From: Bacillota bacterium
Lineage (GTDB): Bacteria > Bacillota > Sulfobacillia > JAUYEF01
DNA length: 64,000 nt
Reading direction: 5' to 3'
NCBI GenBank assembly: GCA_030691635.1
Contig: JAUYEF010000428.1
Span: forward strand, 1,486-65,485
The notes under the pieces were generated by a model. It was not told where the DNA came from. It saw only the letters and a program-made list of their open reading frames with translations, and ran no database searches. Positions 1 through 24,014 of the stretch are shown piece by piece. The translations under genes and the position numbers were made by a program. How positions within the stretch are numbered: position 1 is the stretch's first letter; the number at the start of each line of letters is the position of its first letter.

Positions 1-255
1 TCAATTGCGCAGGCTACGAATTCGCTTTCGGGATCATGTGTAGAGTAGTTTACTGAAGATACGGGGTCGTGATGATGGCTTCGCAGGAGGCAGTGTCTGA
101 GGCCGCGGTCGAACTCGGTCTGCTTTCTCAATGAGACGCGCTTTTGCTGGAATACATACTGCAAAGCACCAAACAAGTCGTCGGACATCTGTGGGGACAT
201 AACAAACCGCAATAGACCCTGCTCTTCATACTCAAGGATTTTGGTGGCATCAGGC

Positions 256-1113
256 TCATCGCGTTCCTTTGGTTAGTGCCTCGATTAGGTTGACGCCGCT
301 TGAATAGCCCCGCGGCGCGAGATAGGTCAGGAAACCGAGGCTTTGACCTCGACTCGCCATCTCGATGTCGCGCTGGCTGTCCGTGACTGTGCAGTCGCCG
401 CCCTCAGCGAGAAGAAACACCCTCTTCTCAGGCCCGAGGCCGGCCAGCCATTCAAGCGTCTTCCAGAACCACCTGTTCTGTGGGCACCTGTTGAAGTTCT
501 CCCAGCAGAATCCGTCTACGCTGCCGACGCTGAGGCGACAGATCGTCTCGAGGCCCATGTTCTGGCACAGGATTGCGCTCGGCCAGGCTTGTCGGATGCT
601 CGCGATCGCGTGCACCACCGCCAGCGCGAGTTGGTCTGCCGGCGCGACACTGCCGTCAAACCTGGTCAGCACGGGCCTCTCGACATCGCTCACAGTGTCT
701 ATGAATAGCCCATCGAAGTGCAGCCGCATCGCGTTTGTGACCTTTGCTTGGGCGCGCTCTATGCACCGCGGCGATCCCGGATCGACGATCAGCTGCTGGT
801 GGCCGCACGCCTCAGCCGCTCGCTCCGAGAGAAAGTCCGACGGGCCGAACCCATCGAGCGCCTCGCCTGGCTGCGGCTCAAGCAGGCTTAGGTACGCAAG
901 CACGACCAACCCGGCGTCTTTGAGGCGCAGCACCGAATCGCCATCCCAGGCTGCCGGCTCGAGGATCGCGATGTCGAAGCGCTGGACTTCCTCAGCGTGT
1001 CCATAGCCGTAGAAGACCACGAAGTTACGTGCGTCAAGAAAGCGCTGGCGTGCGCTGCGGTCCGGGCCTCGGTAGGCCTCGTCGCGCTGGCGCGGTGCGT
1101 TAGCGGCGTGCAT
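256..1113 (-). CDS. TM1410/GH114-like (beta/alpha)8 glycoside-hydrolase-like protein, no signal peptide
   Basis: 285-aa ORF. Segments FDIAILEP, LKDAGLVVLAYLSLLE and HFDGLFIDTVSD fit the strand-end motifs I associate with the endo-alpha-1,4-polygalactosaminidase/TM1410 barrel family. The ATG at 1113 overlaps the TAA of the upstream gene by 14 nt (operon). Confidence 0.5.
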   Translation of the reverse strand: MHAANAPRQRDEAYRGPDRSARQRFLDARNFVVFYGYGHAEEVQRFDIAILEPAAWDGDSVLRLKDAGLVVLAYLSLLEPQPGEALDGFGPSDFLSERAAEACGHQQLIVDPGSPRCIERAQAKVTNAMRLHFDGLFIDTVSDVERPVLTRFDGSVAPADQLALAVVHAIASIRQAWPSAILCQNMGLETICRLSVGSVDGFCWENFNRCPQNRWFWKTLEWLAGLGPEKRVFLLAEGGDCTVTDSQRDIEMASRGQSLGFLTYLAPRGYSSGVNLIEALTKGTR

Positions 1114-2908
1114 TGCGGCTGAGGTGCTCTGTGCGCACGATGCAGGTTTCGCAGGAAGCCCCGTGCATCGAGCACTTCACGCCGGCCACGGTCCAACAGG
1201 CAATGTCCGCGCCATAGGCCGGGCACGATGCGGCGATAGAGGGCGGACATAAGACCATTTCCCAACACGGCTCCAGGCTTTTGTCCACTGGCGCGAGCCG
1301 CTGCTTGTCCACCCACCATTGGAGAAACGCCTGGATCACCGCAGGGTCGAATTGGGAACCGGCGCCGGTCTCGAGCATCTTGACCGTAGCGTCAAAGGCA
1401 GCCGCAGGCCTGTATGCCCTGCTTGACGTGGCGGCGCAGAAGGAATCGGCCACGGCCAGCACCCGCGCGCCGGGCGGAATCGAGTCTCCACGCAGCCCGT
1501 CGGGATACCCCCAGCCGTCCCACCGTTCGTGATGATGCCTGACCAGCGCTCCAAGCCCATCATGGTCCCGCACGGGCTCGGCCAGCGCTCCCCCAAGCTC
1601 CACGTGCCCTTTCATCTCCTCATGCTCTTTGTGATCGTACCTGCCGGTCTTGAACAGCACGGCCTCGTCGAGCGCCGCCATGCCTATGTCATGCAAGAAG
1701 CCCGCCAGTTCGACGGTACCGGGGTCCGGCAGGCCCATCTGGGCGGCGATCGCCCTGGAGTAGCGCGCCACTCGGGCGGAGTGTCCGGCTCCGTACGGAT
1801 CTGCGGCATCCATCGCCACGACGATGGCTTTCAGCGCTTCGACATACGTGACCGACATCTGGCGGAGGAGCCTTTCCTGCCCCATGGCCTGGCCGATCCG
1901 GGATGCCACGGCCCCGAGCGCCTCTGCAAGATGCTCCGGGAGCGCGCCCGGTGGTCTCATCCAGATGGCGAGCAAATGCTGGCTGCCGGCAGGGAACAGA
2001 ACGGGCTTCAGCCCAAGGCGGCGGACGCCACCGTTCGGGTCGGGCTCCCGTAGGCCGGCCCCGCCCGGCTTGTCGCCTGCTCCCCGCGCGGCGATAACCG
2101 ACGGCAGCATATCTTCTACCGCCCGTGCCTCTTCTCCGGACAACCCCCAGGCCGCAGCGATGCGCGGTTCCTGCTCTGTGGCCGAAATGAGCACCCCCGC
2201 AGCCGCCCTGGAGACCCGCCCGACCAGGCCCAACAGCGTTTCGGCCAGTTGGCCCCCGCCGATGCTGGTCGCGCTTGCCACGGCTGCCCTCACCCTTGCG
2301 TCCCCAAGATCTCCGGCGAGGATGCTCACCTGGGAGGCAAGATCGAGAACACGCCCGGCGCATCTTCCGAGGAGCGACAGTGACCTGAGGGTGCTGGGGG
2401 GTACGGGGTTCTTGAACGGTCCAACCCGGAGCAACCCAGAGTGATCGCGTCCGAGAGAGACGTCGACGAACCTCAGATCCCCCTCGCTGGTGACTGCCGC
2501 CTCCGGTGGCCTCCCGCGCAGATGCAGCGTGAAGGGCGGCAGGTACCCGGAGTCCTGGAGTTCGGCGATGCTTGAGTAGCTGACCCCGACCCTTGCGCGC
2601 AATGCTTCGCTGTCCAGCGCAAGCAGGGTTGCATCCGCGGCCATGCTGGTCCGCCAGTAGACGTAGTGGCCAGGAGCGGAAACGATCTTGCCCGACGCCT
2701 CGACCACATTTGCCGCCACCCTCTTCAGGTCAGGCGGGCCGCTGTCGTCGCTCACCACCTTCATGAGGACATCGAGGCGTGCCCGGTCGACTCTACGCGC
2801 CCGTAACAGCAGCAAGCACAGCACCGCCGTGAGGAGCATGAGTATCGCGCAAGCAGGCAGCGCTACCCGAAGCCCTTCCTCATCCATCGCAAAGACCTCC
2901 GGGCGCAT
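1100..2908 (-). CDS. Membrane-anchored HD-GYP domain protein (c-di-GMP phosphodiesterase type) with a C-terminal Cys-rich 2xCW module
   Basis: 602-aa ORF with an N-terminal TM segment (LPACAILMLLTAVLCLLLL). About 330 aa of sensor-like region follow, then GHSARVARYS...FLHDIGM...HHERWDGWGYPDG (canonical HD and GYP motifs). The tail is CWEMVLCPPSIAASCPAYGADIACWTVAGVKCSMHGASCETC (7 Cys, two CW). Confidence 0.8.
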   Translation of the reverse strand: MRPEVFAMDEEGLRVALPACAILMLLTAVLCLLLLRARRVDRARLDVLMKVVSDDSGPPDLKRVAANVVEASGKIVSAPGHYVYWRTSMAADATLLALDSEALRARVGVSYSSIAELQDSGYLPPFTLHLRGRPPEAAVTSEGDLRFVDVSLGRDHSGLLRVGPFKNPVPPSTLRSLSLLGRCAGRVLDLASQVSILAGDLGDARVRAAVASATSIGGGQLAETLLGLVGRVSRAAAGVLISATEQEPRIAAAWGLSGEEARAVEDMLPSVIAARGAGDKPGGAGLREPDPNGGVRRLGLKPVLFPAGSQHLLAIWMRPPGALPEHLAEALGAVASRIGQAMGQERLLRQMSVTYVEALKAIVVAMDAADPYGAGHSARVARYSRAIAAQMGLPDPGTVELAGFLHDIGMAALDEAVLFKTGRYDHKEHEEMKGHVELGGALAEPVRDHDGLGALVRHHHERWDGWGYPDGLRGDSIPPGARVLAVADSFCAATSSRAYRPAAAFDATVKMLETGAGSQFDPAVIQAFLQWWVDKQRLAPVDKSLEPCWEMVLCPPSIAASCPAYGADIACWTVAGVKCSMHGASCETCIVRTEHLSRNARR

Positions 2909-2911
2909 CTC

Positions 2912-4162
2912 TCATCGCCTGACCACCCTCCGCCACATCTCCCGGTCCGTACAATGGCTGGCTATTGCGGAAAGCACACCCGCGACCGGCCACGGATCAT
3001 CTGGTTCGAAGATGTCCTTTCGCTCCCCGCCGGGAGCAGGAGGCAACGGTCTGGGCAGACGTCCTGCGCAGAGGCACGCCGCCGCGTGAAGTATGCCCCC
3101 CGGCAGCAGCCATTTCACACGAACCCCAGGCACATATGCGTGAGTTGCCGGCACCGCTTCACCCAGCGCCTCAAGGAGCGCGAGAGCCGGGAAATCCACT
3201 CCGGCAGCCACTGCGCACGCGAGCGAAGCCCAGAACCGCGGGTTCACCTCCATGAGCACTGGCCTTGAGTCGCGCCGGTCCACCATGTACTCGACCTCGG
3301 CGACGCTTCTCCAGCCCGTCTTCTCGAGAAGGCGTGTGGCGCTTTCCACCAGTTCAGGCCTCACTGTGCTTTCCTGCACCGTGCTTGGCCCCCGGTCCAA
3401 AGGATAGTTCCTGAGCTCGCGCTGCACGAACGATGCACGTAAGTCCTCATCCCTGTCAAACAGCATGCACACGTCAAACCGGTCTCCCGGTGGTATGAAC
3501 TCTTGCACAAGGGGCGGGCCGTGCTCTCTCTGCACAGATTCATATGCCGCCACGAAGTCCCGCTCTGTGCGGATATACCTGAGCCCCCGGCCTCCAGATG
3601 TCTTCCGGGGCCTCAGCACACACGGGAAACCCAGACGCCTCGCCGCCCGGAGCGCGGATGAAGAGCTGTCCGGGAGTTCCGTGGCGGGATGCCTCAGCCC
3701 CCGCTTGGCCGCGATTTCGTAGGTCTGGAACTTGTCGCGTGCGGCCATATACGCGCTGGGCGGCGCGAGCGCCACTGGTACGCCCGGGTTCCAGCCCGAA
3801 GCCAGGGCTGAGGTCACCACATCACAGACTGCGTCGTCCATTGGGAAAAACGCGTCGAGCAACCGTGTCCGCAGGAACAGCCTGAGGAACTCTTCGAATC
3901 CGGCTGGCCTGCCGGCGGCGGACGGGTAGGCGACTGACTCCGAGCAGTACCGGGAGAAGGCAGCCACAGGCGCTCTGGTCTCCTCGCCGACAACCACCCG
4001 TACGCCCTTCCGTCCCAGGGAACGAGTCGCCGCCAGCGCCTTCCGCTGGTTCCCGTCGGTCACGAACACCTTGATGCCCGAGAACATGGTCGGGCCGGTG
4101 AGTTGGGACGCCTGGACGCCCGCGGGAGGCCTGGATGCCGGGGGTGGGGTGATCTCGCCCAT
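2912..4162 (-). CDS. ATP-grasp domain protein (carboxylate-amine ligase type)
   Basis: 416-aa ORF. KVFVTDGNQRKALAATRSLGRKGVRVVV (pre-ATP-grasp Rossmann-like), GFPCVLRPRKTSGGRGL and AEVEYMVD...PVLMEVNPRFW are ATP-grasp signatures. The ATG follows the GT2 stop by 1 nt; an alternative ATG lies at 4087. Confidence 0.65.
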   Translation of the reverse strand: MGEITPPPASRPPAGVQASQLTGPTMFSGIKVFVTDGNQRKALAATRSLGRKGVRVVVGEETRAPVAAFSRYCSESVAYPSAAGRPAGFEEFLRLFLRTRLLDAFFPMDDAVCDVVTSALASGWNPGVPVALAPPSAYMAARDKFQTYEIAAKRGLRHPATELPDSSSSALRAARRLGFPCVLRPRKTSGGRGLRYIRTERDFVAAYESVQREHGPPLVQEFIPPGDRFDVCMLFDRDEDLRASFVQRELRNYPLDRGPSTVQESTVRPELVESATRLLEKTGWRSVAEVEYMVDRRDSRPVLMEVNPRFWASLACAVAAGVDFPALALLEALGEAVPATHAYVPGVRVKWLLPGGILHAAACLCAGRLPRPLPPAPGGERKDIFEPDDPWPVAGVLSAIASHCTDREMWRRVVRR

Positions 4163-4163
4163 C

Positions 4164-4979
4164 TCAGCGTGCCTCCACGCGCCGCTCCAGGTCCGCGGCG
4201 GAAACGACGCTCGCCCGTTTCAGCACCCGGTCCGCCCTGGCCCCCGGCGTGCTTGCCAGGCCGAGCTCCACCCGGACAAACGCCCAGGCCCCCATGAGCA
4301 TATTGGCCAGGCCATCCCTTACGCGTGCGCCGTCCCGGTAGTAGCGCACCTTCACAGGGTGCGAATTGTCCACCCTGTGACCGGCCCTTGAGGCGATGAT
4401 CCCGATCTCCTGAGCGCATGTGTACTTCCAACCCGTGAAGAACCTGAGCAGGTCCGCGACGACCCAGGCGCGCATGGCGCGGAACCCGCTCTCCACGTCG
4501 ATATAGCGGCTACCCGACAAACACGTGGCCCACGCAGAAAGGATGGTGTTTCCGAAGCGCTTGAAGGCCGGATAGCTTCCCATATCCCTCCTCCCGAGCA
4601 CCAGGGCCGCGTCCGATTGCTCCAACTGAGTGCACAGCCCCGGGATATCGCCAGGGTCATGTTGCCCGTCGGCGTCCATCGTCAGCACGATGTCGGATTC
4701 CGACAGCATGCCCGCCTCCATGAGTCTCCAAATGTAGCAGAGACCCGTAAGCAGGGCCCCGGACATGCCGTGGTTTCTCCCAAGGTTTATGAGCGTGGCC
4801 TTGGCGCCGTCCCGCGACCTTAGCATCCATGCCGTCACCAGCAGGGCGGATGTGTCCGTAGACCCATCGTTGACCACGACTATGTGGTCCACTTCTGGAG
4901 CGGCGCCGCTCAAGACCTCGAGCACAGTCCTGGACTCATTGAACTGCGGCAGGATCAGGACTCGTTTCACTTCCCTCAA
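4164..4979 (-). CDS. Family 2 glycosyltransferase
   Basis: 271-aa ORF. VLILPQFNESRTVLEVL, HIVVVNDGSTDTS and LTMDADGQHDP are typical of the GT-A/GT2 fold (DPM1-like). The TTG start lies 1 nt after the stop of the preceding reading frame. Confidence 0.8.
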   Translation of the reverse strand: MREVKRVLILPQFNESRTVLEVLSGAAPEVDHIVVVNDGSTDTSALLVTAWMLRSRDGAKATLINLGRNHGMSGALLTGLCYIWRLMEAGMLSESDIVLTMDADGQHDPGDIPGLCTQLEQSDAALVLGRRDMGSYPAFKRFGNTILSAWATCLSGSRYIDVESGFRAMRAWVVADLLRFFTGWKYTCAQEIGIIASRAGHRVDNSHPVKVRYYRDGARVRDGLANMLMGAWAFVRVELGLASTPGARADRVLKRASVVSAADLERRVEAR

Positions 4980-4980
4980 G

Positions 4981-5292
4981 TCACCTTCCGTCTCTCGAGC
5001 CAGGCCCCTCAGGTCGCCACACGCGTTGCCAGTCGCCCCGCAGCGGCTCTCCCTGGTCTATGAGCCACACTTCCAGGTCGCGATCGCTGAAGTAGAGAGA
5101 GATGTTGCTGTGCCTTTCAGCGTAAGCCTTGATCCAAGCGCCCAACCGCGCTGCCAGCAGGCCGGCGCGTTCACTCTGGGCCTCAGACTCGGGCGAACCG
5201 AGCCCGGGAGCGCCCGGCGTTGGCCGGAAGACGGTCTTCTCGAGAAACAGGAACACCCGTGATGCCGGCAGGATGGCCGCGCCTGGCTGGTC
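4981..5292 (-). CDS. Coding segment in the +1 frame relative to the upstream membrane gene (probable C-terminal continuation, or a small ORF lacking a canonical start)
   Basis: The frame reads ...DQPGAAILPASRVFLFLEKTVFRPTPGAPGLG...AWIKAYAERHSNISLYFSDRDLEVWLIDQG and has high third-position GC. It ends exactly at the GT2 start. The annotated frame of the 448-aa ORF turns Arg-rich with low GC3 over the same DNA. Confidence 0.4.
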   Translation of the reverse strand, partial: DQPGAAILPASRVFLFLEKTVFRPTPGAPGLGSPESEAQSERAGLLAARLGAWIKAYAERHSNISLYFSDRDLEVWLIDQGEPLRGDWQRVWRPEGPGSRDGR

Positions 5293-6529
5293 TTCTCTGG
5301 GCGAAGCAGCGATAGGGGAGTAGGAACAAGGCCCAAGTGACAAAGCGCAAATTAGGCATTGCCGTGGGATCGTAGGCTGCTAGAAACTCCTGCAGGCTCA
5401 TGTGCCAACCAGCGCCCAGCGCCAGGGCATATCCCTCTTCGCCGCCGACGATCATCCACTTGTGGGGCGTGTGTGTGGTCGCGATGCGAAGATACTGGTC
5501 CACCCAGGCATCCGACTGCATCCTGTAGGCGGCCGCCGGCTGGACACCGGCCTTCCACGCCGTCATGCCGAGGCCCAGCAAGACCAGCGTGGCTACCAGC
5601 CGGCCGGCGCCTCGCCGGACCGGGGAGTCCGGGGCAAGGCTTCCCACGCCGGCGGAAATGCCGAGAGCTATGCCAGGGCTCCCGGATTCGCCGCCCCTGG
5701 TGGAGAGGACGAGACTGCTCAGCCCCAGCCGCGACGCCTGCCATATCGCAAGCGACGCCAGGGTCACCAGCAGGCACACCAGAGAATCCTTAGGCGAGGG
5801 GCCCTGCCGGGCGCCGGTATCCCATGTCGACCGGCCGCGCGCGTGGCGAAACAGGGTGATCACCATGCCACCTGCGGCACAGCAAACGGCCGCCAGCGCG
5901 ACTGGAGTCAACCCCTGCCCGGCGGCGTTTCCCCCCGAGAGCGCAAAGGCAAGCGAACTCTGGTGAAGAGGAATTCCATGCAAGAGGCCTGCCGCTATGG
6001 GCGCCGCTGAAACCCCTGCGGCGAGCAGGCCGGTCCATATGACCCGTTTGGCGCGCCTGTGGTCAAGGCTGCCACAGATGGCGTGAGCGCTTAGGCAACA
6101 GCCGGTGTATGTCGCGGCAGCCAGGGCGGGCAATGGGTGCACCAGGCCAGTCACCGCCAGGCCGGCCCCGGCCGTGGTGAGGTCCAGGTGATCGCCTTCG
6201 TCCAGGTAGCGTGACAAAAGCACGACCACCGGCAGCACAAACGCCATTCCGAACTCCTGTGAGTTCGTGGATGCCTGCCGCGCGTAGTCCAGGGGCAGAG
6301 TTCGGGGAAGTAAGCCCAGCACGAACGCGGCGACAAGGCCTGCTGTGGGCGATCTGGTCAGCCTGGTGGCGCAATACCAGGCACCGGCCACTGTGAGCAG
6401 GGACGCCAGCGGGCCCGCGAACTTCAGGACCAGCAGCGGGTCGATGGCCGAGATCTTCCGCAGGGCTGACAGGATGATGTGAAAGCCGTGTGGGTACACC
6501 CCATCATGGAACAGCTGCTTTGATTCCAT
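5183..6529 (-). CDS. Polytopic membrane protein, GT-C-like (central part of an interrupted gene?)
   Basis: 448-aa ORF with many hydrophobic segments. It starts MESKQLFHDGVYPHGFH immediately after an in-frame TAA. The last ~35 codons look out of frame. Confidence 0.55.
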   Translation of the reverse strand: MESKQLFHDGVYPHGFHIILSALRKISAIDPLLVLKFAGPLASLLTVAGAWYCATRLTRSPTAGLVAAFVLGLLPRTLPLDYARQASTNSQEFGMAFVLPVVVLLSRYLDEGDHLDLTTAGAGLAVTGLVHPLPALAAATYTGCCLSAHAICGSLDHRRAKRVIWTGLLAAGVSAAPIAAGLLHGIPLHQSSLAFALSGGNAAGQGLTPVALAAVCCAAGGMVITLFRHARGRSTWDTGARQGPSPKDSLVCLLVTLASLAIWQASRLGLSSLVLSTRGGESGSPGIALGISAGVGSLAPDSPVRRGAGRLVATLVLLGLGMTAWKAGVQPAAAYRMQSDAWVDQYLRIATTHTPHKWMIVGGEEGYALALGAGWHMSLQEFLAAYDPTAMPNLRFVTWALFLLPYRCFAQRRPARRGHPAGITGVPVSREDRLPANAGRSRARFARV

Positions 6530-7069
6530 TTACTTCATCCAGGCAAGCGTGACGTAGGCGTCTGACAGGGCAGGCGCGGCATGGATGAACGGGTCGTACA
6601 GCCGGAGGAACCCGGCGGCCACCAGAATGGCCGCTGTGCCGGCTGTGATGATACTGCGCCAGAGGCGGGGGGCCTGACGCACCGACTGGCTCGCCGCGTT
6701 CCATGGCCCCAGGATACGGGTGTTCTGTTTGCCGTCCACCACGTCGAGAAACGCGGCAGCGGTCGCATCGAGCCGGCCACGCAGCGCGCGCGGGGGTAGC
6801 CGGGCAATGCGCAGGCCCGCCAGCGCCAGGAAGACTGCCGCGAGCGAGGGCAGTTCGTAAATCCTCAGCGCGGCAAGCAGGTAGACGGAGATGATGACAG
6901 CCATGACGCTCCTGGTGATTCCGGCGAAAGCCTTATCGGCCGTGGTCCAACGGCGGCTCTGGCCAAAGACCAGAGCCGGCACGACGCATAGCAGAAGCGC
7001 GCCGGAAAGCAACACGCGCGCCAGCGCCGATGCGGCAAACGGGATGGTATACGTTACGCCCGTGCCCAC
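6530..7069 (-). CDS. Membrane protein with 4 TM segments (possible N-terminal part of the GT-C-like protein)
   Basis: 179-aa ORF ending ...RLYDPFIHAAPALSDAYVTLAWMK-TAA. The next ORF begins at the very next codon in the same frame. Confidence 0.5.
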   Translation of the reverse strand: MGTGVTYTIPFAASALARVLLSGALLLCVVPALVFGQSRRWTTADKAFAGITRSVMAVIISVYLLAALRIYELPSLAAVFLALAGLRIARLPPRALRGRLDATAAAFLDVVDGKQNTRILGPWNAASQSVRQAPRLWRSIITAGTAAILVAAGFLRLYDPFIHAAPALSDAYVTLAWMK

Positions 7070-7079
7070 AGCATCCTCC

Positions 7080-8687
7080 CTACGCGGCCGCGTACAGGTG
7101 ATAATCCATCCTGCTCAGCACGCGTTTGCACGCCCGTGTCGTGAAAAACAGAAAGACGAGAACACCTGCCATGAGCCCGCAGGTTGCGAGGGCGTAATGC
7201 CAGAGCCTTGTGAGCAGAAAGCCCACGAGGCAGTTGACAACCAGGCCGGCACCCATTCCGGCCACCGCCGGGCCGGGCACCGAAAGGCTGAATAGGACCA
7301 GGCAGTTGAGCATGCATGGGGCGAGGAGGGCATACGCGATCGACGCCGTGCGCAGCGTGAAGACGCTGACGGGGTCGAGCGTGCACCCGGCCCCACCGGG
7401 AAGAAGCCTTTGGGTGATGTCCAGGAGCACGGGCGGCACCAGCATTCCGGCAGCTGCTGCCACGCAGCAGAGCGCAAGGCTCCCAAGGTAGGCGCGGTAC
7501 TGCCTGGAGTTGAAGAGGCGGATGCGCGGACCGGTATACTCCTTCTGCAGGTCGGACAGCCGCGCTGAGAAGCGCGAGATAAGGACCTCTATCATGCCGA
7601 GAGGAAGCACCAGTCCCATCATGGCCCAGTCCAGGCCGAGCTCATAATCCCCACGGAACCATATGACGTACGGCATGAAAGCGCTGTGGGCCGACCACGC
7701 CATGAGCCGGTCCAGGTAGAGAAATAGGAAGAATAGGAACCCATAGGTGAAGTACGGCGCCACCGTATAGGCCACAATCGACATTCGCGGCATCCTGGGC
7801 GACCCACGGCTGCCCTTTCTTCTCTCCTCGCGCGCGAAGAGGATGGTGGCCAGCAGGATGCCTGCGGCACTGGTCGCGCACAGCGCGACCACCTGCGCCG
7901 TGGTGATGGGTAAGTAAAACCGCTCGTGCAGCGCCCAGACGAGCCACGTCCCGGCGCCAACGAGCACGGTGAACAGCACCTCCGCGCGCAGCATGTAGAA
8001 GATCGTGAGAGAGAGCCACATGGCGCAGAGAAGGAGGAAGTGCGAGACGATAGAGAGGGTCATCGCCGGGGGAAACAGCGGGAAGACCATTCCCGCAAGG
8101 AGGATTCCCGCGCCGAGCACGGCGCTGACCAGCGCGCCCATCCGCGCAAGCAGGAATGTCATGCGTCTCGCCATGCCGTATTCCGACTGCACCACATACA
8201 TGAGCCCGCGACGGGCGATGGCCTGCGTGAAGCCCCCAGTCGCGAGGAATCTCAGCACTATGGCCAGCGCGATGGCGGTCGCCCTCTCCACGGTAAGGTA
8301 CTGGTACGCCCAGAGGGAATACCTGAGTGTCAGCATGGCGAAGATCGAGATGATCATCGGGGCGGCGAATATCGTGCCTTTCAGAAAGCTCCTGGCATCC
8401 CCGGCCAGCGTCCCCAGCAGCGGTCTGGCGCGGGCCCTGGCAGGGATTTGGGCTGCGGCTCGCGCCCGGACCGCCGGCCATATTTCCCTGGCGAGCGCAA
8501 ACACGTCTTGCAGCCGGAACCGTTGTGCGACCCGTTGGTCGGTCCAGCCCAGCGACTCAAGCGCGGCCCCGACCTCCAGTTCGTCTCCAGGCGCGCGGGA
8601 GACGGCGAGCACTGACGTGCAGAGCCGTTCGAGCTCTCCTACCCGCACCGCTCCCCCTCCTCCGGTCTCACCCTGCTTCCAGGCCAT
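7080..8687 (-). CDS. Large polytopic membrane protein, PelG-like exporter candidate with an N-terminal cytoplasmic extension
   Basis: 535-aa ORF with about 10-12 TM segments. The segment RGDYELGLDWAMMGLVLPLGMIEVLISRFSARL resembles the conserved PelG loop as I recall it. Position next to the PelF-like gene supports the call. An alternative GTG start at 8648 has a GGAGGAGGGGGAG SD. Confidence 0.45.
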   Translation of the reverse strand: MAWKQGETGGGGAVRVGELERLCTSVLAVSRAPGDELEVGAALESLGWTDQRVAQRFRLQDVFALAREIWPAVRARAAAQIPARARARPLLGTLAGDARSFLKGTIFAAPMIISIFAMLTLRYSLWAYQYLTVERATAIALAIVLRFLATGGFTQAIARRGLMYVVQSEYGMARRMTFLLARMGALVSAVLGAGILLAGMVFPLFPPAMTLSIVSHFLLLCAMWLSLTIFYMLRAEVLFTVLVGAGTWLVWALHERFYLPITTAQVVALCATSAAGILLATILFAREERRKGSRGSPRMPRMSIVAYTVAPYFTYGFLFFLFLYLDRLMAWSAHSAFMPYVIWFRGDYELGLDWAMMGLVLPLGMIEVLISRFSARLSDLQKEYTGPRIRLFNSRQYRAYLGSLALCCVAAAAGMLVPPVLLDITQRLLPGGAGCTLDPVSVFTLRTASIAYALLAPCMLNCLVLFSLSVPGPAVAGMGAGLVVNCLVGFLLTRLWHYALATCGLMAGVLVFLFFTTRACKRVLSRMDYHLYAAA

Positions 8688-9378
8688 CGCCTGGAAATCT
8701 CATGTAGACAATGAGCTCCGCGATCTTCCCTTCGGCGACGGCGCGCCGGTATGCCTCAACTGTGATCAGGCCGCCGGCCCTGATGATGGTCCCGGCATCC
8801 CCGGCAAGGTCTCGCCCGGCGATGTTGCCGACGACATACGCCATCTCCAGCGCGTCTATTTCATCTTCCAGTGCGACCGGTGTGACCGGCACGACCGCCT
8901 TGACCACTCTGGACAGAGTGCCCGCGGGCGCCCGGCGGCCTTCGCGTGGCTGCCCCAATAGGCTTTTCAGACCCTCCAGCAAGCGAGCGCGGCCTGCCCG
9001 GGCCCTGCTGGCTTCCGCCTCGATTCGCAGCGCCTCTGAGGCGCAGGAATCGATTTCCGGCCTGACAAGCCCGAGTAGGTGGTCGGCCTCCACCCCGGCC
9101 TTCTCGAGGATTCTTAAGCAGGTATCGTCGACTGATGCCTCAAGCCTCTCGACGGCCTGTGCGCGGCTCGAGAGGCGCGACAGGCGGGACTGCACGTGTG
9201 CTCGGGCCGCCAATAGAGCCCTGTTCCTGGCGCGGGCATGGTCCAAAGCGGTCTGGGCCTCCCACACAGCAGCGCTCGAAGAGGCCATAAGATCCCGGCA
9301 GAATGCTCTGACCTCGGCCCTGTCATAACTCAAGAAGGCCAACCCCAGGTGCGGAAGGCCGCGCTTGCCGAGTGTCAC
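8668..9378 (-). CDS. DivIVA-like coiled-coil protein with a C-terminal beta-rich module
   Basis: 236-aa ORF. The N-terminus AFLSYDRAEVRAFCRDL fits the DivIVA F-x4-GYD-x2-EV-x2-F motif and is followed by a long Ala/Arg/Leu coiled coil. The C-terminus is YVVGNIAGRDLAGDAGTIIRAGGLITVEAYRRAVAEGKIAELIVYM. Its GTG overlaps the upstream TGA (GTGA). Confidence 0.55.
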   Translation of the reverse strand: MTLGKRGLPHLGLAFLSYDRAEVRAFCRDLMASSSAAVWEAQTALDHARARNRALLAARAHVQSRLSRLSSRAQAVERLEASVDDTCLRILEKAGVEADHLLGLVRPEIDSCASEALRIEAEASRARAGRARLLEGLKSLLGQPREGRRAPAGTLSRVVKAVVPVTPVALEDEIDALEMAYVVGNIAGRDLAGDAGTIIRAGGLITVEAYRRAVAEGKIAELIVYMRFPGDGLEAG

Positions 9379-9791
9379 TGCCTTCGTGCCGTCCTGTCGG
9401 GGACTGTCCCGGGACGGTCCGAGACGCCGGCCGCCTGCTGGAGCAGGCTTTCGAGCACGAAGGTCAGGCTGCGGAAACCCCTTTCCGCAGCCATAGCCTC
9501 ATCACGGCGCCTGTCCAGGTCGTCACGAGCGTTGGCTAGCATCTGGGAGGCCCTGCTGCGAGAATCCGCGATGGCTCGCGCCACCTTTGCTTCACGCTCC
9601 TGCAGGCCGGTGGTCTCACGCTCTATCTCAGCCAGTTCCTGGTCTAGCTTAAGGTTTGCGGCCTCGAGTCTCGACGTTTCGGTGCAGGCATCCACGACAA
9701 ACATCTTGGTGGAGGCGTAGAGCCTTTCTATGAAGCCATCCACCGCACGTCTGGTGTAGCCCCATGGCCTTATGGAGAACCGGGGTGTCAC
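9375..9791 (-). CDS. DivIVA domain-containing protein
   Basis: I trimmed this from the 218-aa track ORF. The GTG at 9791-9789 overlaps the pelF-like TGA (GTGA). It encodes (M)TPRFSIRPWGYTRRAVDGFIERLY followed by a coiled coil (LEAANLKLDQELAEIERETTGLQEREAKV). Confidence 0.65.
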   Translation of the reverse strand: MTPRFSIRPWGYTRRAVDGFIERLYASTKMFVVDACTETSRLEAANLKLDQELAEIERETTGLQEREAKVARAIADSRSRASQMLANARDDLDRRRDEAMAAERGFRSLTFVLESLLQQAAGVSDRPGTVPDRTARRQ

Positions 9792-11632
9792 AAGACCACC
9801 CCAGCCGGGTTTAGGCCGGCCCTGGCGACACCTGCCCGGTCGAGCTGCGAGGGCGAGCGCGAGTGCAGTGTGCTTCGCGCCTGAATGGCCTTCCGCATCT
9901 CGGCCTGCGCCGCGCTCCTGTGGCCCATGCCCACGAGCGCTCTTGCCAAGAGAATCCGCAGAGCCGGTGCGGCTGCGCTGGATTCGTCCAGAGTAATGGC
10001 CAGCCTGAAGGCGGCGACCGCCTCGGGCCATCTCCCGGACAGGCCGAGCGCGAAGCCTCTGTGGGCGAACAGCGCCTGTCGCGCCAGGGTCCGGCGCGCA
10101 AGTTCGCGAGACTCGGCTTCCCGGTCGCTGAGTTGAGCCAGGCGCTCATAGCACTCCAAGTGCAGCACGGCGAACCGTTCTGTGGTGAAGTAGGTGAGCG
10201 CCCGCTCGCGCGCCTCCTGGCCCAGTGACGCGCGTTCCAGCGGGTTCTCCAAAAGGTAGCAGATGGCCCGGGCAAATTGCTCCGGGTCCTGCGGCGGGAC
10301 GACGATGCCCGCCGGGCCGAGAGCTTCGCTCACGCCTCCAACATCTGTAGCGACGATCGCCTTGCCGGCCATCATCGCCTCAACTATCGAATAGGGAAAT
10401 CCCTCGGTCACGCTCGATAGCACAACGATATCGCCAGAGTGGTACGCCTCCGGCGCGTTCTCGGTGTGGCCTGCGAACACGAATGCCCGGTCAAGTCCCA
10501 GCCGGGTCCTGAGCGCCAGGCATCTGTCGAAGTACTCCGGCATAGTGACCCCGCCGTAGATGATGAACCTGACCTCCGGGGCGGTGGCATGCACAAGAGC
10601 TGCGGCACAGAGAAGCGTCTCGATGTCCTTGACCGGGTCGATACGCATAACTCCGATGACCGCAGGCGGGCTCTTCTTCCTGTGTGGCGAAGGAGCGAAC
10701 ACGGCCGGGTCCACGCCGTTATGGATGACGCGGATTTTCGTGGCACGCACGCCGAGCTGTCGCTCCCAGCGGGAATTGTAAGCGCATACAGGCGATACCT
10801 GGTCCGCGAAGTGGTAGTTCAGCGCGACCACCGACCGGACCAAGCTCATCAGGAACTTCCTTAGGTAAGGCGGCAGGGCCGCCCTTCCCTTCGAGAGGTA
10901 CTGCTCGCGCAGGTACACACCGTGCTCGGTGAGCAGGTAGGGGGTGTTGTGCAGGATGCGTGAGAGCACCGCTGGTATGCCGCAGAAGGCCGCGGCCGCA
11001 GAGTGCGCGACATCCACCCGGGGCAGTGGTGTGTTCAGTATGATGAAGAACCTGTAGAGCCAGCCGAGGCTCTGGGTAAGGTCAAACAGCGTCGGCTCCG
11101 GCCACCTGACCGGGCGGGCGTTGGGCGCCGCCAGCCGCTTGAAGCACTCCCACGTGGCCGGGCTCTTGGAACACACCCGGTAGTCGTATTCCTCGAAGAG
11201 CTGGTACAGGCCGGCGCATGTGGCTCCAAAGCGGGCGGGATCCTTTTCATCGGACGTGACCTCGGCGATCAGGTCCCGGAAGAGCGGCAGGAACTGTGAA
11301 GCGATGGTTTTCTCGATGGTCCTGCGTTTGGCGAGATAGACTTGGGAGAAGGGCCTGCCGGCGAGGTGCTCGCAGGGTTCCTCCGTGCCCCAGAGAGGCA
11401 CACGCAGCAGGCGGGCGTTTCCCGGCAGGCGGTAGGTCTGGGTCACAAAGGGGTTCATCATCACTGCATAGATCACAAAATCAATCTGCTCGAGCTTCGA
11501 GAGCAGGATGTCACACCAGGTGCTGACGCCTCCCCTGGCAAAGGGGTAAGTGCCTTCCGTTGTGAGCATCACTCTTATGCGCTCGGGCATCTGAAGTAGC
11601 ACCAGCCACCAGGCAGCGACAATATCGCTCAA
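9788..11632 (-). CDS. pelF: PelF-like GT4 glycosyltransferase (DUF3492 N-terminus) fused to C-terminal TPR-like repeats
   Basis: 614-aa ORF. RVMLTTEGTYPFARGGVSTWCDILL matches the characteristic PelF/DUF3492 start. The GT4 E-x7-E motif is present (SSVTEGFPYSIVEAMMAGKAIVATDVGG). The last ~110 aa (GFALGLSGRWPEAVAAFRLAITLD...LARALVGMGHRSAAQAEMRKAI) look TPR-like. The start may be the ATG at 11590. Confidence 0.75.
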   Translation of the reverse strand: MSDIVAAWWLVLLQMPERIRVMLTTEGTYPFARGGVSTWCDILLSKLEQIDFVIYAVMMNPFVTQTYRLPGNARLLRVPLWGTEEPCEHLAGRPFSQVYLAKRRTIEKTIASQFLPLFRDLIAEVTSDEKDPARFGATCAGLYQLFEEYDYRVCSKSPATWECFKRLAAPNARPVRWPEPTLFDLTQSLGWLYRFFIILNTPLPRVDVAHSAAAAFCGIPAVLSRILHNTPYLLTEHGVYLREQYLSKGRAALPPYLRKFLMSLVRSVVALNYHFADQVSPVCAYNSRWERQLGVRATKIRVIHNGVDPAVFAPSPHRKKSPPAVIGVMRIDPVKDIETLLCAAALVHATAPEVRFIIYGGVTMPEYFDRCLALRTRLGLDRAFVFAGHTENAPEAYHSGDIVVLSSVTEGFPYSIVEAMMAGKAIVATDVGGVSEALGPAGIVVPPQDPEQFARAICYLLENPLERASLGQEARERALTYFTTERFAVLHLECYERLAQLSDREAESRELARRTLARQALFAHRGFALGLSGRWPEAVAAFRLAITLDESSAAAPALRILLARALVGMGHRSAAQAEMRKAIQARSTLHSRSPSQLDRAGVARAGLNPAGVVL

Positions 11633-11647
11633 AATGTGTCACAACGT

Positions 11648-11676
11648 TATAACACCCACTATCATTATGCAGCAAT
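11648..11676 (-). promoter_or_regulatory. Candidate sigma-A promoter of the pelF-like operon
   Basis: On the minus strand: TTGCTG (11676-11671), 17 nt, TTATAA (11653-11648). It lies in the only AT-rich 200-nt gap of the island. Confidence 0.35.
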
Positions 11677-11832
11677 ATTACAGGATGAAACTTCCCCTCC
11701 ATCTCACAGGAAACCCCTCGCGACCTATTGCTCGGCCGTGAGGGGTCTGGTGCCCCGCGTGAAACTCTGGCCCGAGATGCAGACAAGCGTCCTCCCGCGT
11801 CAACCTGCGGCCTGATGCGCAGGCTATGCGGG

Positions 11833-13431
11833 CTACCTCCTCAGCACTTTGCCTGCCTTTTCGCCGGTTATCTCCCCATCCCTCAGGGCGACCGATCCGT
11901 TCACCAGCACATACTTGACGCCTGCAGGCTTCTCAGATGGGGTCTCCACGCTGCCGGAGTCCCCGACGGTGTGCCTGTCGAACACCACCAGGTCCGCGAA
12001 ATGGCCCTGCTTCAGCAGTCCCCGGTCGCTGAGGCCCATGCGCCCGGCAGGGACCGAGGTCAGCTTCCGGACCGCATCTTCCAGTGGAAGCGCGCCCAAG
12101 TCCCGTGCGTAGCGGCCAAGCACCCTCGGGTAAGTGCCGAAGGTCCTCGGGTGGCCGGCGCCCGACTTATCCTCAAGGACATCCTGCGTGCTAGCGTCCG
12201 TGGATATCATCGAGAACGGGTGTTTGATGAACATCTCAACTTCGTTCTCGCTCATGATCAGCGCCGTCTTGACGGCCAGGTGGTTCTCAACGCCAAGCCA
12301 GATGACCGCCGGTATCAGGCCTATGCCCAGGTCTGCGGCGATTTCCTCGAGGCTCTTCCACTCATGCTCCCTGGTGTTCTGGCACCAGACGACCCCGCGC
12401 TGTGGCAAGTTCCTCAGCCGGACCGGATCGATCTTGGCCATCTCAGTCTCTGCGTCCCGGGCCACCTGTGCGGCGCCCTCAGGGTCGCCCCTGAGGGCGC
12501 TGAGCAGTTCACCGATGTTGAGTCTCGGCGCAACGCCGGTGAATATGCCCCGTAGCGTGCCGATCTGGGCGAAGATGTACGGGTAGACGTCGAACATCAG
12601 GTCAAGCCCGCTTTCCCGGGCCTGCTCGATCCGTTCGAGGACGGAAGGCGCCTTGCCCCAGTTCTGCTTGCCGCAGACCTTGGCGTGCACGATGTGGGGC
12701 CTCGCCCCGCTTGCCCTGGCCACGTAGAGCAGCTCGTCGATCGCCTCGTGGATTGCGTCGCCCTCGCTCAGCATGTGGCAGGCATAGAGCCCGCCGGACG
12801 GAGCGATTTCCCTGCACATCGCGGCGATTTCCTCACGGCCGGCAAGGCGCCCGGGCATGTAAGTCCTCCCAGCGCTGAGGCCGAACGCGCCTTCCTTCAT
12901 GGCATCCCGCACGGTTAGCCGCATCTTATCAAGTTCTTCGGCGGAGGGCTCGCGGTCTTCATACCCCATGACATAGTTGCGGACCGTCCCCTGGCCGACG
13001 AACATGCCCAGGTTCACTCCGCAGCCGACATCCTCGATCCTGCCGAGAAACTCACCAAAGGAGTGCCAGTCCACGCTGGGCGGTTCGACGCCCATCCGCT
13101 TGGCCCGCTCGGCCGCCCGCTCCTTCATGGCGTCGTTGACCGGCCCCTGCGAACCGCCACACTGGCCTGCGAACACCGTCGTTATGCCCTGGAACAGAGA
13201 GCTCTTGCAGTACGGGTTGGTCAGGACCGCCCTGTCGGCATGCGAGTGCACATCTATGAAGCCAGGCGAAACGCACAGGCCTCCGGCGTCGATATGCTCG
13301 CTCCCGGTGAGCGACCCCGGCACTGGCGAGACGACGCCTATGCGCTGCCCGGATATGCCGATATCGCCCGTGAACCGGGCGCGCCCGGAGCCGTCTACGA
13401 TGGTCCCGTTCCGGATGACAAGGTCAAACAT
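11833..13431 (-). CDS. N-acyl-D-amino-acid deacylase (D-aminoacylase) family amidohydrolase
   Basis: 532-aa ORF. MFDLVIRNGTIVDGSG...GLCVSPGFIDVHSHAD and the overall length are typical of the COG3653 D-aminoacylase family. Confidence 0.8.
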   Translation of the reverse strand: MFDLVIRNGTIVDGSGRARFTGDIGISGQRIGVVSPVPGSLTGSEHIDAGGLCVSPGFIDVHSHADRAVLTNPYCKSSLFQGITTVFAGQCGGSQGPVNDAMKERAAERAKRMGVEPPSVDWHSFGEFLGRIEDVGCGVNLGMFVGQGTVRNYVMGYEDREPSAEELDKMRLTVRDAMKEGAFGLSAGRTYMPGRLAGREEIAAMCREIAPSGGLYACHMLSEGDAIHEAIDELLYVARASGARPHIVHAKVCGKQNWGKAPSVLERIEQARESGLDLMFDVYPYIFAQIGTLRGIFTGVAPRLNIGELLSALRGDPEGAAQVARDAETEMAKIDPVRLRNLPQRGVVWCQNTREHEWKSLEEIAADLGIGLIPAVIWLGVENHLAVKTALIMSENEVEMFIKHPFSMISTDASTQDVLEDKSGAGHPRTFGTYPRVLGRYARDLGALPLEDAVRKLTSVPAGRMGLSDRGLLKQGHFADLVVFDRHTVGDSGSVETPSEKPAGVKYVLVNGSVALRDGEITGEKAGKVLRR

Positions 13432-13486
13432 GGTTACCGTTCCTTTCCCCAGCGTCAGTTGGGAAGTCCAGGGAAACTCTATGTGT

Positions 13487-14395
13487 CTATGCTAAGAGGT
13501 CCAGGGCGTCAACCGCCGCCATGAAGCGAAAGCCTGCGCACAGCCTTGCGAACTTATCCCTGCTGGCCGCCAGGCCCCAGTATTGCCTCACCCTGTCCAC
13601 GGGACCTATCCCGGCGAGCCGGGGTTGGCCGTCATCGAACTCCCATGGGTGGAAATACAGCATGGCAGGGGTCTTATCCTTGTTCATGCTGCTCAGGGCC
13701 ATCGCGGTCGCGCGGTAAGGCAGCGCCCGGAAAAACACGCCCCCGAGCGGGAGCCGCACCGGCCCCCATCCGGCCACAGCGACCGGCAGTTCCCACAGCC
13801 CCGGGCAGATTCCCCACGGAAGGCGAGCGGCCCGCGCATGGTCCGGCCCGGCCAGCGCCACCGGAAATACGCTCGAGTCGTACCTGAACCCGAGGTCGCG
13901 AAGCACTTCGTGGTGTCTCCGGTCACCTGGGCCCAGCGAGAAACCCGGTGCACGGTACCCGACGGGCACCTGCCCGCAGGCCCCGACGATGGCGTCGCTT
14001 GCGCGCAGCACATCGTCCCTGAACCGGCCCGGGTCCATTTCCTTGACGCTGCGGTGCTCGTGCCCGTGACAAGCGACTTCATGCCCGCGTCGAGCGATCT
14101 GCTTGATGAGTCTCGGGTGGCTTTCCGCGAAAACGCCCAGGCAGAAGAACGTCGCCCGCTGGCGTCGCGCCTCAAGCACATCGAGAAGCCACGATAGGGG
14201 CTCGGCGCACCGGCTTTCGAACGCTCGCGCGCCTTGCCCGGCGCCGCGCCATAAGCAGGCGCGCCGGGCGTCGCTGACCGCGCGCTGGAACACAGCTGTG
14301 TGGAAATACTCCTCAACGTCTATGGTCAGGACGTTCAGCGGCGCCGGGACGTGATCTTTCGGACCAGAGGAATCACCGGGACCTGGACAGAACAC
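13487..14395 (-). CDS. Polysaccharide deacetylase (CE4 with DUF3473-type C-terminus)
   Basis: 302-aa ORF. NVLTIDVEEYFH, EVACHGHEH and MLYFHPWEF are signatures of the EPS-locus deacetylase subfamily. GTG start. Confidence 0.8.
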   Translation of the reverse strand: MFCPGPGDSSGPKDHVPAPLNVLTIDVEEYFHTAVFQRAVSDARRACLWRGAGQGARAFESRCAEPLSWLLDVLEARRQRATFFCLGVFAESHPRLIKQIARRGHEVACHGHEHRSVKEMDPGRFRDDVLRASDAIVGACGQVPVGYRAPGFSLGPGDRRHHEVLRDLGFRYDSSVFPVALAGPDHARAARLPWGICPGLWELPVAVAGWGPVRLPLGGVFFRALPYRATAMALSSMNKDKTPAMLYFHPWEFDDGQPRLAGIGPVDRVRQYWGLAASRDKFARLCAGFRFMAAVDALDLLA

Positions 14396-14451
14396 ATTTC
14401 GGAGAATACTCTACCAGTGACCGTATTCCTTGCCTTGAGGGGGGAAGAAAC

Positions 14452-14949: not shown

Positions 14950-15127
14950 TGATCGGGTGGGCAACGATAACGAGGCATCCAAATGTGCGGCGATACAGCT
15001 CTAGGGTATAACAAGCTACCGTTAGAACCGTAACTGCCATGTTCACGACTACGTTAATACCATGGCGGCTGACGAGTAGTAGAATCAGGCCGGTTTCCCG
15101 CTGACCGGTGTGCGCAGCAGTCTGATC

Positions 15128-23584: not shown

Positions 23585-23689
23585 TCGGAACCCCCGTTCG
23601 TGTCCTGCCGCTCGGACTTCTCCAGAGCGGTGCGCGTTTCCTCCAGCGCGCGGATTGCGCGCACGAGCCGGCAGAGCCCGCAGAAACAT

Positions 23690-23995: not shown

Positions 23996-24014
23996 TAGCG
24001 CGACCAAGCTGTTG

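Follow-up and report, generated by a model that had tools for sequence, protein, structure and literature searches.

Can a gene cluster that lacks PelD, PelB, PelC and a separate PelE gene still be a Pel-type polysaccharide system, and what would then stand in for the missing parts? This question is raised by a tightly packed run of minus-strand open reading frames (ORFs) at positions 256-14395 of the window, by which we mean the whole stretch of 64,000 nucleotides analyzed here (contig JAUYEF010000428.1 of a Bacillota bacterium of the Sulfobacillia lineage; G+C content about 62%). On balance, we read this region as a Pel-related glycopolymer system that represents a distinct locus type conserved across Bacillota, with a mechanism that is partly conjectural. 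An initial annotation, made from the sequence alone, had proposed a Pel-related cluster, and this proposal holds: the region encodes a PelF that scores above the family cut-off, a probable, divergent PelG, a barrel resembling the hydrolase domain of PelA, and a CE4 deacetylase. The annotation was also right that PelD, PelB and PelC are absent from the cluster, and a separate PelE gene is lacking as well.

Pel is a main biofilm polysaccharide, and how the soluble GT4 enzyme PelF and the MOP-type protein PelG make and export the polymer is unresolved. The locus type described here offers a comparative handle on this problem: PelF and PelG are kept, PelD and PelE are replaced, a GT-C gene nearly always lies beside the PelG gene, a complete gene set for a putative lipid-carrier sugar module comes with them, and natural fusions join PelF to PelG. 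The genes of the cluster are listed below in the direction of transcription, with the evidence for each in brackets.

13487-14395, minus strand: CE4/DUF3473 polysaccharide deacetylase, a relative of the XrtA/PEP-CTERM type (Pfam, NCBIfam)
11833-13431, minus strand: amidohydrolase of the D-aminoacylase/Amidohydro_3 type (Pfam)
9788-11590, minus strand: PelF-family GT4 enzyme with DUF3492 and GT1 domains and a C-terminal TPR region (NCBIfam, Pfam)
9375-9791, minus strand: small DivIVA/GpsB-like coiled-coil protein, 138 residues (GTGA junction, family profile)
8668-9378, minus strand: larger DivIVA-like coiled-coil protein, 236 residues (N-terminal motif, weak DivIVA matches)
7080-8687, minus strand: divergent PelG-like polytopic membrane protein, 535 residues (family comparison, AlphaFold2 model)
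4981-7069, minus strand: gene of a GT-C-fold glycosyltransferase, disrupted (intact orthologues, DNA alignment, AlphaFold2)
4164-4979, minus strand: GT2 enzyme, probably a polyprenyl-phosphate sugar synthase in the PpgS/ArnC/GacI-like class (PF00535)
2912-4162, minus strand: ATP-grasp ligase (CPSase_L_D2)
1100-2908, minus strand: membrane-anchored GAF-HD-GYP protein with an 8-Cys C-terminal tail (HD_5, GAF profile)
256-1113, minus strand: PelA-hydrolase-like TIM barrel, 285 residues (family profile against PelA structures)

PelF and the PelG-like protein

The PelF ORF, 614 residues as called, scores 133.3 bits against the NCBIfam PelF model NF038011 (cut-off 100) and matches Pfam PF11997 (DUF3492) at 7e-35 and GT1 domains at 1e-29, which bears out the identity first proposed from its DUF3492 N-terminus. 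The orthologue in a related locus (L009) reaches 142.6 bits against the PelF model. The ORF opens with a TTG codon at 11632; the orthologue in L082, a close relative of the window, has 600 residues, and ATG 11590, which gives the same length, is the probable start. TPR-like repeats had been noted at the C-terminus, and they are confirmed: the tail past residue ~490 is conserved in 66 homologues and scores 2.1e-5 against TPR_2; in the orthologue from L009, the TPR_2 match exceeds the gathering score. No PelE-type small membrane TPR gene was found in the cluster; the TPR region is fused to the PelF C-terminus instead.

The claim that the 535-residue protein is PelG-like stands in part. A direct match to the PelG model is missing: the protein does not match it even at E<=10, has no direct match to any other Pfam model, and PDB sequence searches with the protein and with its profile gave no matches. 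Homology becomes visible through the family, in which PF16933 (PelG) is matched over almost its full length by 15 of 34 homologues, at 25-45 bits (best 8.8e-12) against a gathering score of 29 bits. The AlphaFold2 model of the protein, with a predicted local distance difference test (pLDDT) score of 85.6, retrieved MOP-superfamily transporters only (MATE, WzxE, MurJ; TM-score up to 0.69) in Foldseek, and a profile search of 1.84 billion representatives yielded 488 relatives at E<=1e-30. Three of these relatives are natural single-chain fusions (P0251, P0256 and P0261) that join DUF3492 and GT1 domains of the PelF type to a PelG-like membrane domain, which argues that PelF and the PelG-like protein work together. 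Family sequences and predicted fold together point to a divergent PelG.

The N-terminal ~95 residues of this protein hold no predicted transmembrane (TM) segment and form a small helical domain in the model. PF16933 does not reach this extra domain, which has no Pfam match even at E<=10 and is presumably cytoplasmic. Other fusion candidates were rejected: the N-terminal extensions of the PelG-like proteins P0137, P0241, P0224 and P0195, considered as DivIVA-like fusions, are of low complexity, and P0237 looks like a run-on of the PelF tail.

Conservation of the locus in Bacillota

Related loci were compared by tblastn and all-against-all clustering of their ORFs. The scan, which took one genome per species, gave 80 loci; almost all carry the label Bacillota, and the closest match to a GTDB representative was 43% identical. 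The arrangement is not a one-off; the neighborhood comparison shows a conserved locus type in about 80 species-level Bacillota genomes. Carriers include Paenibacillus, Psychrobacillus, Priestia abyssalis, Ectobacillus, Tumebacillus, Alicyclobacillus, Desulfosporosinus, Pelotomaculum, Dethiobacter and many metagenome-assembled genomes of Clostridia. In the recurring order, a galE-like gene is followed by PelF, the small and the large DivIVA-like genes, PelG-like, GT-C and ATP-grasp, and then by CE4, MurJ-like, GT2, DUF2304, HD-GYP and hydrolase genes.

Gene families were counted over 83 loci, and the counts are lower bounds as many loci are cut by contig ends. PelG-like genes were found in 81 loci, GT-C in 75, PelF in 68, the large coiled-coil gene in 63, GT2 in 54, DUF2304 in 47, HD-GYP in 46, ATP-grasp and MurJ-like in 42 each, CE4 in 40, the hydrolase in 35, galE-like in 26 and the amidohydrolase in 3. 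Adjacency was counted over the 82 related loci. The PelG-like gene is followed directly by GT-C in 71 loci and preceded directly by the large coiled-coil gene in 60, and the small DivIVA-like gene comes after PelF in 34. GT2 is followed by DUF2304 (41 loci), CE4 by the MurJ-like gene (30) and HD-GYP by the hydrolase (27). Of the 36 loci with both ATP-grasp and CE4, 28 have ATP-grasp as the gene directly upstream of CE4, and in 13 loci the galE-like gene directly precedes PelF. The lineage of the window, comprising the window, L081 and L082, has CE4 relocated upstream of PelF.

The cluster had been called an island, and this is not supported. Its G+C content equals that of the flanks, and the same cluster sits in the same gltX/POR context in L081 and L082. 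Horizontal acquisition was rejected on these two grounds, base composition and shared chromosomal context.

PelA-like hydrolase and CE4 deacetylase

The 285-residue barrel had been placed near GH114 and TM1410. It has no Pfam match of any kind, hence none to GH114, and as a single sequence it finds PelA (9cgy) at E=0.009. A profile built from 33 family members and scored against solved structures matches PelA first (1.4e-23 for 9cgy and 3.5e-22 for 5tcb) and GH114 second (9ep5, 3e-8), followed by TM1410 (7e-5) and Ega3 (0.016). The GH114 assignment is replaced by one to relatives of the PelA hydrolase domain, which we take to be CAZy family GH166. E205 and D139 are invariant in the family and align to E218 and D160 of PelA, respectively. 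E218 of PelA is the residue altered in the catalytic-site variant of Whitfield et al. 2020 (PMC7112168).

The CE4/DUF3473 deacetylase was identified correctly at the outset (Polysacc_deac_1 1.3e-19, DUF3473 5.6e-28). Its nearest NCBIfam model is the XrtA-system deacetylase TIGR03006, at 208.8 bits and below the cut-off of 276. The orthologue in L081 has 256 residues, and the true start may lie further inside the ORF. A signal peptide or hydrophobic segment was found in none of the 33 hydrolase family members, and a hydrophobic N-terminus, signal peptide or TM segment in none of the 40 CE4 family members. Both enzymes are predicted to be cytoplasmic; being without export signals, they cannot act on a secreted polymer as PelA does.

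These two enzymes bear on an alternative that is in essence the framing of the initial annotation, namely that the cluster is an ordinary Gram-positive Pel locus making partially de-N-acetylated alpha-1,4-linked N-acetylgalactosamine (GalNAc) as in Bacillus cereus, with the extra genes being neighbors or minor accessories. A CE4 enzyme and a PelA_H-like hydrolase with the catalytic Glu would be expected in such a locus, as would a PelF that passes the NCBIfam cut-off and the galE-like gene of 26 related loci, yet this CE4, a predicted intracellular enzyme of the XrtA type, differs from PelA_DA, and PelD and a separate PelE gene are missing. The supposed accessories are also commoner than the CE4 and hydrolase genes themselves, with GT-C in 75 and the large coiled-coil gene in 63 of the 83 loci against 40 and 35. 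Gram-positive pel loci have the composition pelDEA_DAFG with the accessory sets pelA_H/galE or cotH/PPP/DUF4956/DUF4832 (Whitfield et al. 2020, PMC7112168), and these published sets differ from the one found here. We consider an ordinary Pel locus improbable.

DivIVA/GpsB-like pair, ATP-grasp ligase and amidohydrolase

The two coiled-coil proteins had been described as DivIVA-like, and this is borne out at the profile level, less certainly for the larger protein. The ORF overlapping PelF, given earlier as 218 residues, actually starts at GTG 9791 and has 138. Single-sequence Pfam DivIVA matches lie below the gathering score; the profile of the small family matches the GpsB N-terminal domain at 3.8e-7 to 6e-5 and DivIVA (2wuj) at 1.8e-4. 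In the larger protein, an N-terminal FG/GY..V motif precedes a coiled coil, and weak DivIVA matches occur in 8 of 30 members of its family. Its C-terminus is a conserved domain of ~60 residues, YIVGK.AGEDL.D..G.LII.K...IT.E.V..A..EGKLAELIVNM (window 8668-8870), the profile of which resembles a segment of RNA polymerase beta (3e7h, 1.2e-5). A PRC-barrel insert is present in 5 of 30 members of the larger family.

The ATP-grasp ligase, as annotated, matches Pfam CPSase_L_D2 at 4.1e-13, and also ATPgrasp_Ter and ATP-grasp_3. Against the PDB it gave generic carbamoyl-phosphate-synthase and biotin-carboxylase matches, with no clue to its substrate. The D-aminoacylase-family amidohydrolase was likewise named correctly (Amidohydro_3 1.6e-27; NF006560 172 bits, below cut-off). 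Among the 83 loci it occurs only in the window, L081 and L082, and we regard it as a lineage-specific addition whose membership in the system is uncertain.

GT-C gene and the putative lipid-carrier module

Thirteen same-strand ORFs had been reported for the cluster. Their positions are correct; the gene count is not, as there are 11 intact genes and one GT-C gene in three pieces. The ORFs of 179, 448 and 120 residues (6530-7069, 5183-6529 and 4981-5343) are fragments of one gene of ~680 codons, which is single in L082 (681 residues), L081 (659 residues) and L083 (680 residues). Identity to the window is 92% for L082 and 74% for L081, and L083, a contig from another sample, shows 99.1% and 97.7% DNA identity. 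In the DNA alignment the first lesion is a TAC>TAA stop at 6527-6529, at a codon that encodes Tyr in L083 and falls in the strongly conserved loop ...SDAYVTLAWMK[Y]...HDGxYP. The second is a 46-nt insertion at 5310-5355 that L083 lacks. This insertion is relatively A+T-rich and has no second copy in the window; a small mobile footprint, a duplication or a misassembly are candidate origins. The lesions are a strain-specific, recent disruption or else an assembly error, and as the gene is broken in this strain, the GT-C branch should be inactive.

The GT-C-like character claimed for this gene was borne out by predicted structure. Sequence matches in the family are faint (PMT_2 in 2 of 29 members, DUF6541 in 4 of 29), and the family profile found no matches in the PDB. 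For the AlphaFold2 model of the intact orthologue P0099 (pLDDT 84.4), the top 23 PDB matches in Foldseek are all GT-C enzymes, at E values of 1e-6 to 1e-2, among them STT3, PglB, DPY19, AftA, ArnT, ALG12 and Pmt4. The GT-C and MOP folds of the cluster were recognized through structure prediction because PDB sequence searches gave nothing. In about 30 related loci the PelG-like gene is followed by a tandem pair of GT-C paralogues (e.g. L002 11597-15627, L017 11571-15580), which suggests two distinct transfer reactions or acceptors.

The GT2 gene, also called correctly, matches PF00535 at 2e-15. Its best NCBIfam matches are PpgS (53 bits), AglJ and ArnC (6e-9), all far below cut-offs, and the orthologue in L009 scores 116 bits against PpgS. 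A strongly hydrophobic 15-residue stretch occurs in 31 of 55 GT2 relatives and is carried at the C-termini inspected; the window GT2 lacks this C-terminal segment. Also lacking at the locus in the window, L081 and L082 are the small membrane partner DUF2304, which we take to be the GacJ/Rv3632 family, and the MurJ-like flippase; in relatives the corresponding Pfam matches are 1.6e-19 (DUF2304) and 6.7e-56 (MurJ). GT2 and GT-C, together with DUF2304 and the MurJ-like flippase of relatives, read as a recognizable lipid-carrier glycosylation module and not as a miscellany. With GT-C inactivated and DUF2304 and the MurJ-like flippase lacking at the locus, no more than the PelF/PelG core should function in this genome.

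Such losses could mean that the cluster is a decaying remnant, functionless here and on its way to loss. Two independent lesions in GT-C would fit decay, as would the absence of DUF2304 and the MurJ-like gene from the locus throughout the lineage, but either lesion may be an assembly error, and since GT-C is intact in a 99%-identical strain, any decay must be very recent. Moreover, no lesion affects the other 11 ORFs, which are tightly coupled, and L081 and L082 retain the full lineage-specific set. Decay of the system as a whole therefore appears quite doubtful to us.

GAF-HD-GYP protein

If PelD is missing, is there another candidate link to cyclic di-GMP (c-di-GMP)? No GGDEF domain is encoded by the cluster ORFs, no GGDEF motif was seen in ORFs of >=150 residues beyond 14 kb, and no conserved PelD-like family was found across the related loci. 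The cluster does encode an HD-GYP protein with one TM segment (residues 17-35), an N-terminal region whose profile matches the GAF domain of PtsP (3ci6) at 9e-6, and an HD_5 match of 2.1e-30. Its naming as HD-GYP is well founded, with the metal-binding residues H376 and H406-D407 and the motif HHERWDGWGYP all kept.

The signature HHERxDGxGYP is invariant in all 44 locus-linked HD-GYP proteins. In about 30 of these the HD dyad is replaced by SN and the first metal-binding His by Y or F (e.g. L009 18101-19981), while the canonical residues are kept in the window lineage and a few Clostridia. To judge from these residues, the SN-GYP proteins look like a catalytically dead family and are possibly c-di-GMP receptors. 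The SN pattern suggests a receptor role that would be analogous to PelD in architecture, not homologous to it, and the degenerate HD-GYP proteins are a lead to a candidate new type of c-di-GMP receptor in Gram-positive bacteria. The C-terminal ~65 residues (window 1100-1300) form an 8-Cys/1-His tail, C..M..C.P....CP......CW.....C..HG..C..C, which is conserved across the family. Pfam searches up to E<=10 gave no match for this tail, a possible binding site for a metal or an Fe-S cluster.

Proposed mechanism

In the Pel-related system that we favor, PelF would act at the inner face of the membrane and join N-acetylhexosamine (HexNAc) units, probably GalNAc, into a chain for export by the PelG-like protein. 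The scaffold and positioning functions of PelD and PelE would fall to the DivIVA/GpsB-like pair, together with the TPR tail of PelF and the extra N-terminal domain of the PelG-like protein. In a parallel branch, GT2 would put HexNAc on polyprenyl phosphate, with the DUF2304 partner in relatives; deacetylation by the cytoplasmic CE4 would expose an amine, to which the ATP-grasp ligase may attach a new acyl group. The lipid-linked sugar would then be flipped by a MOP protein, a MurJ-like one in relatives, and GT-C would transfer it outside the membrane, onto the polymer or a wall acceptor, by the logic of GacI/J/K/L, PpgS-Rv3779 and Arn. The GAF-HD-GYP protein is predicted to couple the system to c-di-GMP, as an active phosphodiesterase in this lineage and as a dead receptor in most relatives. 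The scheme suggests testable links between Pel-type synthesis and polyprenyl-linked intermediates.

The same genes could instead serve one linear lipid-carrier pathway like Lactococcus Wps. GT2 (with DUF2304) would prime polyprenyl-phosphate-HexNAc, PelF would elongate on the lipid, CE4 and ATP-grasp would edit the glycan in the cytoplasm, the PelG-like and MurJ-like proteins would flip it, and GT-C would ligate it whole to an acceptor, which could be peptidoglycan, some wall polymer, or a protein of the cell surface or the spore. A wall-attached glycopolymer or a glycoprotein would result, and not a free matrix polysaccharide of the Pel type. The position of GT-C directly after the PelG-like gene in 71 loci, within the most conserved core, agrees with this pathway. 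Its best structural matches are the oligosaccharyltransferases STT3 and PglB, which transfer whole glycans; however, the Foldseek TM-score to them is ~0.44 and that to ArnT and AftA is similar. The PelG-like fold is that of the lipid-linked-sugar flippases WzxE and MurJ, the cytoplasmic location of CE4, ATP-grasp and hydrolase would fit editing of a lipid-linked intermediate, and adaptors of the DivIVA/GpsB type suit a cell-wall process. WpsA-J provides a precedent, with elongation on C55-P-GlcNAc (GlcNAc, N-acetylglucosamine) followed by GT-C transfer (PMC9574508). On the other hand, the surveyed Pel literature ties PelF-family enzymes to a carrier-independent model only, and the window lineage keeps PelF and PelG without DUF2304 and the MurJ-like flippase at the locus, this strain having lost GT-C too. 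Retention of PelF and PelG without these three suggests that the core may work without the lipid-carrier branch. We see the linear pathway as the main rival to our scheme and as the less likely of the two.

Several points weigh against our preferred scheme of a PelF/PelG export route with a lipid-carrier side branch. The PelF score is modestly above the cut-off, which makes this PelF a distant subfamily with a putative sugar specificity; the window PelG-like protein fails the Pfam PelG model, and few of its homologues exceed the gathering score. GT2, CE4 and the galE-like proteins all fall below NCBIfam equivalog cut-offs, so their substrates are guesses. An intracellular PelA-like hydrolase is without precedent in the surveyed Pel literature. 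Binding or hydrolysis of c-di-GMP by the HD-GYP protein is a prediction from its residues, the roles proposed for the ATP-grasp ligase, the amidohydrolase, the DivIVA-like pair and the Cys-rich tail are conjectural, and the two branches are presumed to join in one product.

A bolder claim can be made tentatively, as a possibility that we would not call probable: that these loci are a separate, widespread Pel-derived class in Bacillota defined jointly by three changes. Sensing would have shifted from PelD with its degenerate GGDEF domain to a membrane-anchored GAF and degenerate SN-GYP receptor with a Cys-rich tail; DivIVA/GpsB-type adaptors would set the synthase at particular membrane sites; and the cytoplasmic PelF polymerase would be mechanistically tied to polyprenyl-phosphate/GT-C transfer. 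If true, this would be a hybrid of the "synthase-dependent" and lipid-carrier polysaccharide pathways and could bear on PelF and PelG in general.

Gene layout and genomic setting

The junctions quoted in support of an operon were re-read and all match: GTGA at 9788-9791 and at 9375-9378, and ATG...TAA at 1100-1113, where the hydrolase gene overlaps the HD-GYP gene by 14 nt. The short gaps of 1 nt at 4163 and 3 nt at 2909-2911 are as claimed. Wider gaps of 55 nt (13432-13486) and ~240 nt, from the amidohydrolase stop (11833) to the probable PelF start (11590), could be promoter sites. A scan of positions 1-15200 for consensus promoters and terminators gave counts not above those in shuffled sequence, and a search of the whole window against Rfam at gathering thresholds placed no RNA family, riboswitches included, within the cluster.

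A divergent Thioredoxin_9-family gene (14452-14949, plus strand) lies between the cluster and gltX and keeps this position in L081 and L082; nothing ties it to the cluster. The window also contains the chromosomal replication origin region (31300-50582), with the cumulative GC skew minimum near 40 kb. On the minus strand this region carries gyrA, gyrB, recF, dnaN and dnaA (39841-41214), and on the plus strand yidC/jag/mnmE/mnmG/rsmG/parA/parB-like ORFs, all names being read from ORF N-termini. Gene content and skew minimum therefore place the Pel-like cluster ~27-41 kb from oriC. A bacterial large signal recognition particle RNA (23740-24003, minus strand) followed by six tRNA genes (24061-25363, minus strand) adjoins ORFs that read as dnaX (21980-23815) and recR (21034-21630).

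Comparison with known systems

The initial annotation knew of no described pel locus with this composition, and we found none in full-text literature searches, whose coverage leaves out most subscription journals. The locus type appears to be a widespread Bacillota variant of Pel-type systems for which we found no published description. A companion paper to Whitfield et al. 2020 mentions, without describing them, Gram-positive operons in which only pelF and pelG were recognized. A Paenibacillus survey based on the canonical gene set found pel uncommon in the genus; the version described here may be present in many Paenibacillus and other spore-formers that have been recorded as "lacking pel".

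Compared with pelDEA_DAFG of B. cereus ATCC 10987 (PMC7112168), the cluster shares a PelF-family GT4 enzyme with DUF3492, a probable PelG-type MOP protein, a barrel of the PelA-hydrolase kind that keeps the catalytic Glu, a CE4 enzyme and a putative link to c-di-GMP, and many members of the locus type have a galE-like gene. Unlike B. cereus Pel, it has neither PelD (GAF plus degenerate GGDEF) nor a separate PelE, the TPR region being fused to PelF here. Its CE4 is of the XrtA/DUF3473 type and predicted to be intracellular, whereas PelA_DA is exported; its hydrolase is without a signal peptide, and its PelG-like protein has an extra N-terminal domain and scores at or below the Pfam threshold. 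Additional to B. cereus Pel are the two DivIVA/GpsB-like proteins, one or two GT-C, GT2 with DUF2304, the MurJ-like protein, ATP-grasp and the GAF-HD-GYP protein.

The lipid-carrier genes recall the four-component systems GacI/GacJ/GacK/GacL of Streptococcus pyogenes and Wps of Lactococcus lactis (PMC9574508). The shared logic would be a GT2 acting on polyprenyl phosphate, a small membrane partner, a MOP/Wzx-type flippase and a GT-C transferase, and these gene classes stand side by side in related loci as MurJ-like, GT2 and DUF2304, plus GT-C. Unlike Gac and Wps, the module lies within a PelF/PelG locus and not a rhamnan locus, and it adds a cytoplasmic CE4 and ATP-grasp. The window is further removed from these systems, having neither DUF2304 nor the flippase and a broken GT-C.

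The Arn pathway consists of the GT2 ArnC, the deformylase ArnD, ArnE/F and the GT-C enzyme ArnT. Galactosamine on mycobacterial and corynebacterial arabinogalactan depends on the epimerase Rv3634c, the GT2 PpgS with Rv3632, and the GT-C Rv3779, and the flippase and deacetylase of this pathway are still unidentified (PMC9671496). As in these pathways, UDP-HexNAc would give lipid-phosphate-HexNAc, which would be de-N-acylated on the lipid, flipped and transferred by GT-C, so that an envelope polymer would end up carrying a cationic amino sugar. The likeness is in chemical logic; the GT2 matches to PpgS, the best in NCBIfam, and to ArnC lie far below equivalog cut-offs. By analogy, the CE4/DUF3473 enzyme could fill the role of the unidentified deacetylase, which makes it a candidate cytoplasmic deacetylase for lipid-linked HexNAc and a lead for a step unassigned in the mycobacterial galactosamine pathway.

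PA2572 of Pseudomonas aeruginosa is a degenerate YN-GYP protein. The HD-GYP protein of the cluster resembles c-di-GMP phosphodiesterases in its HD_5 domain with HHExxDGxxGYP, and in the window it keeps the metal-binding H...HD. It differs from them in its TM-GAF-HD-GYP architecture with the 8-Cys tail, and about 30 of 44 relatives have SN for HD and Y or F for the first His. This arrangement of a TM segment, a GAF domain and a degenerate nucleotide domain echoes that of PelD.

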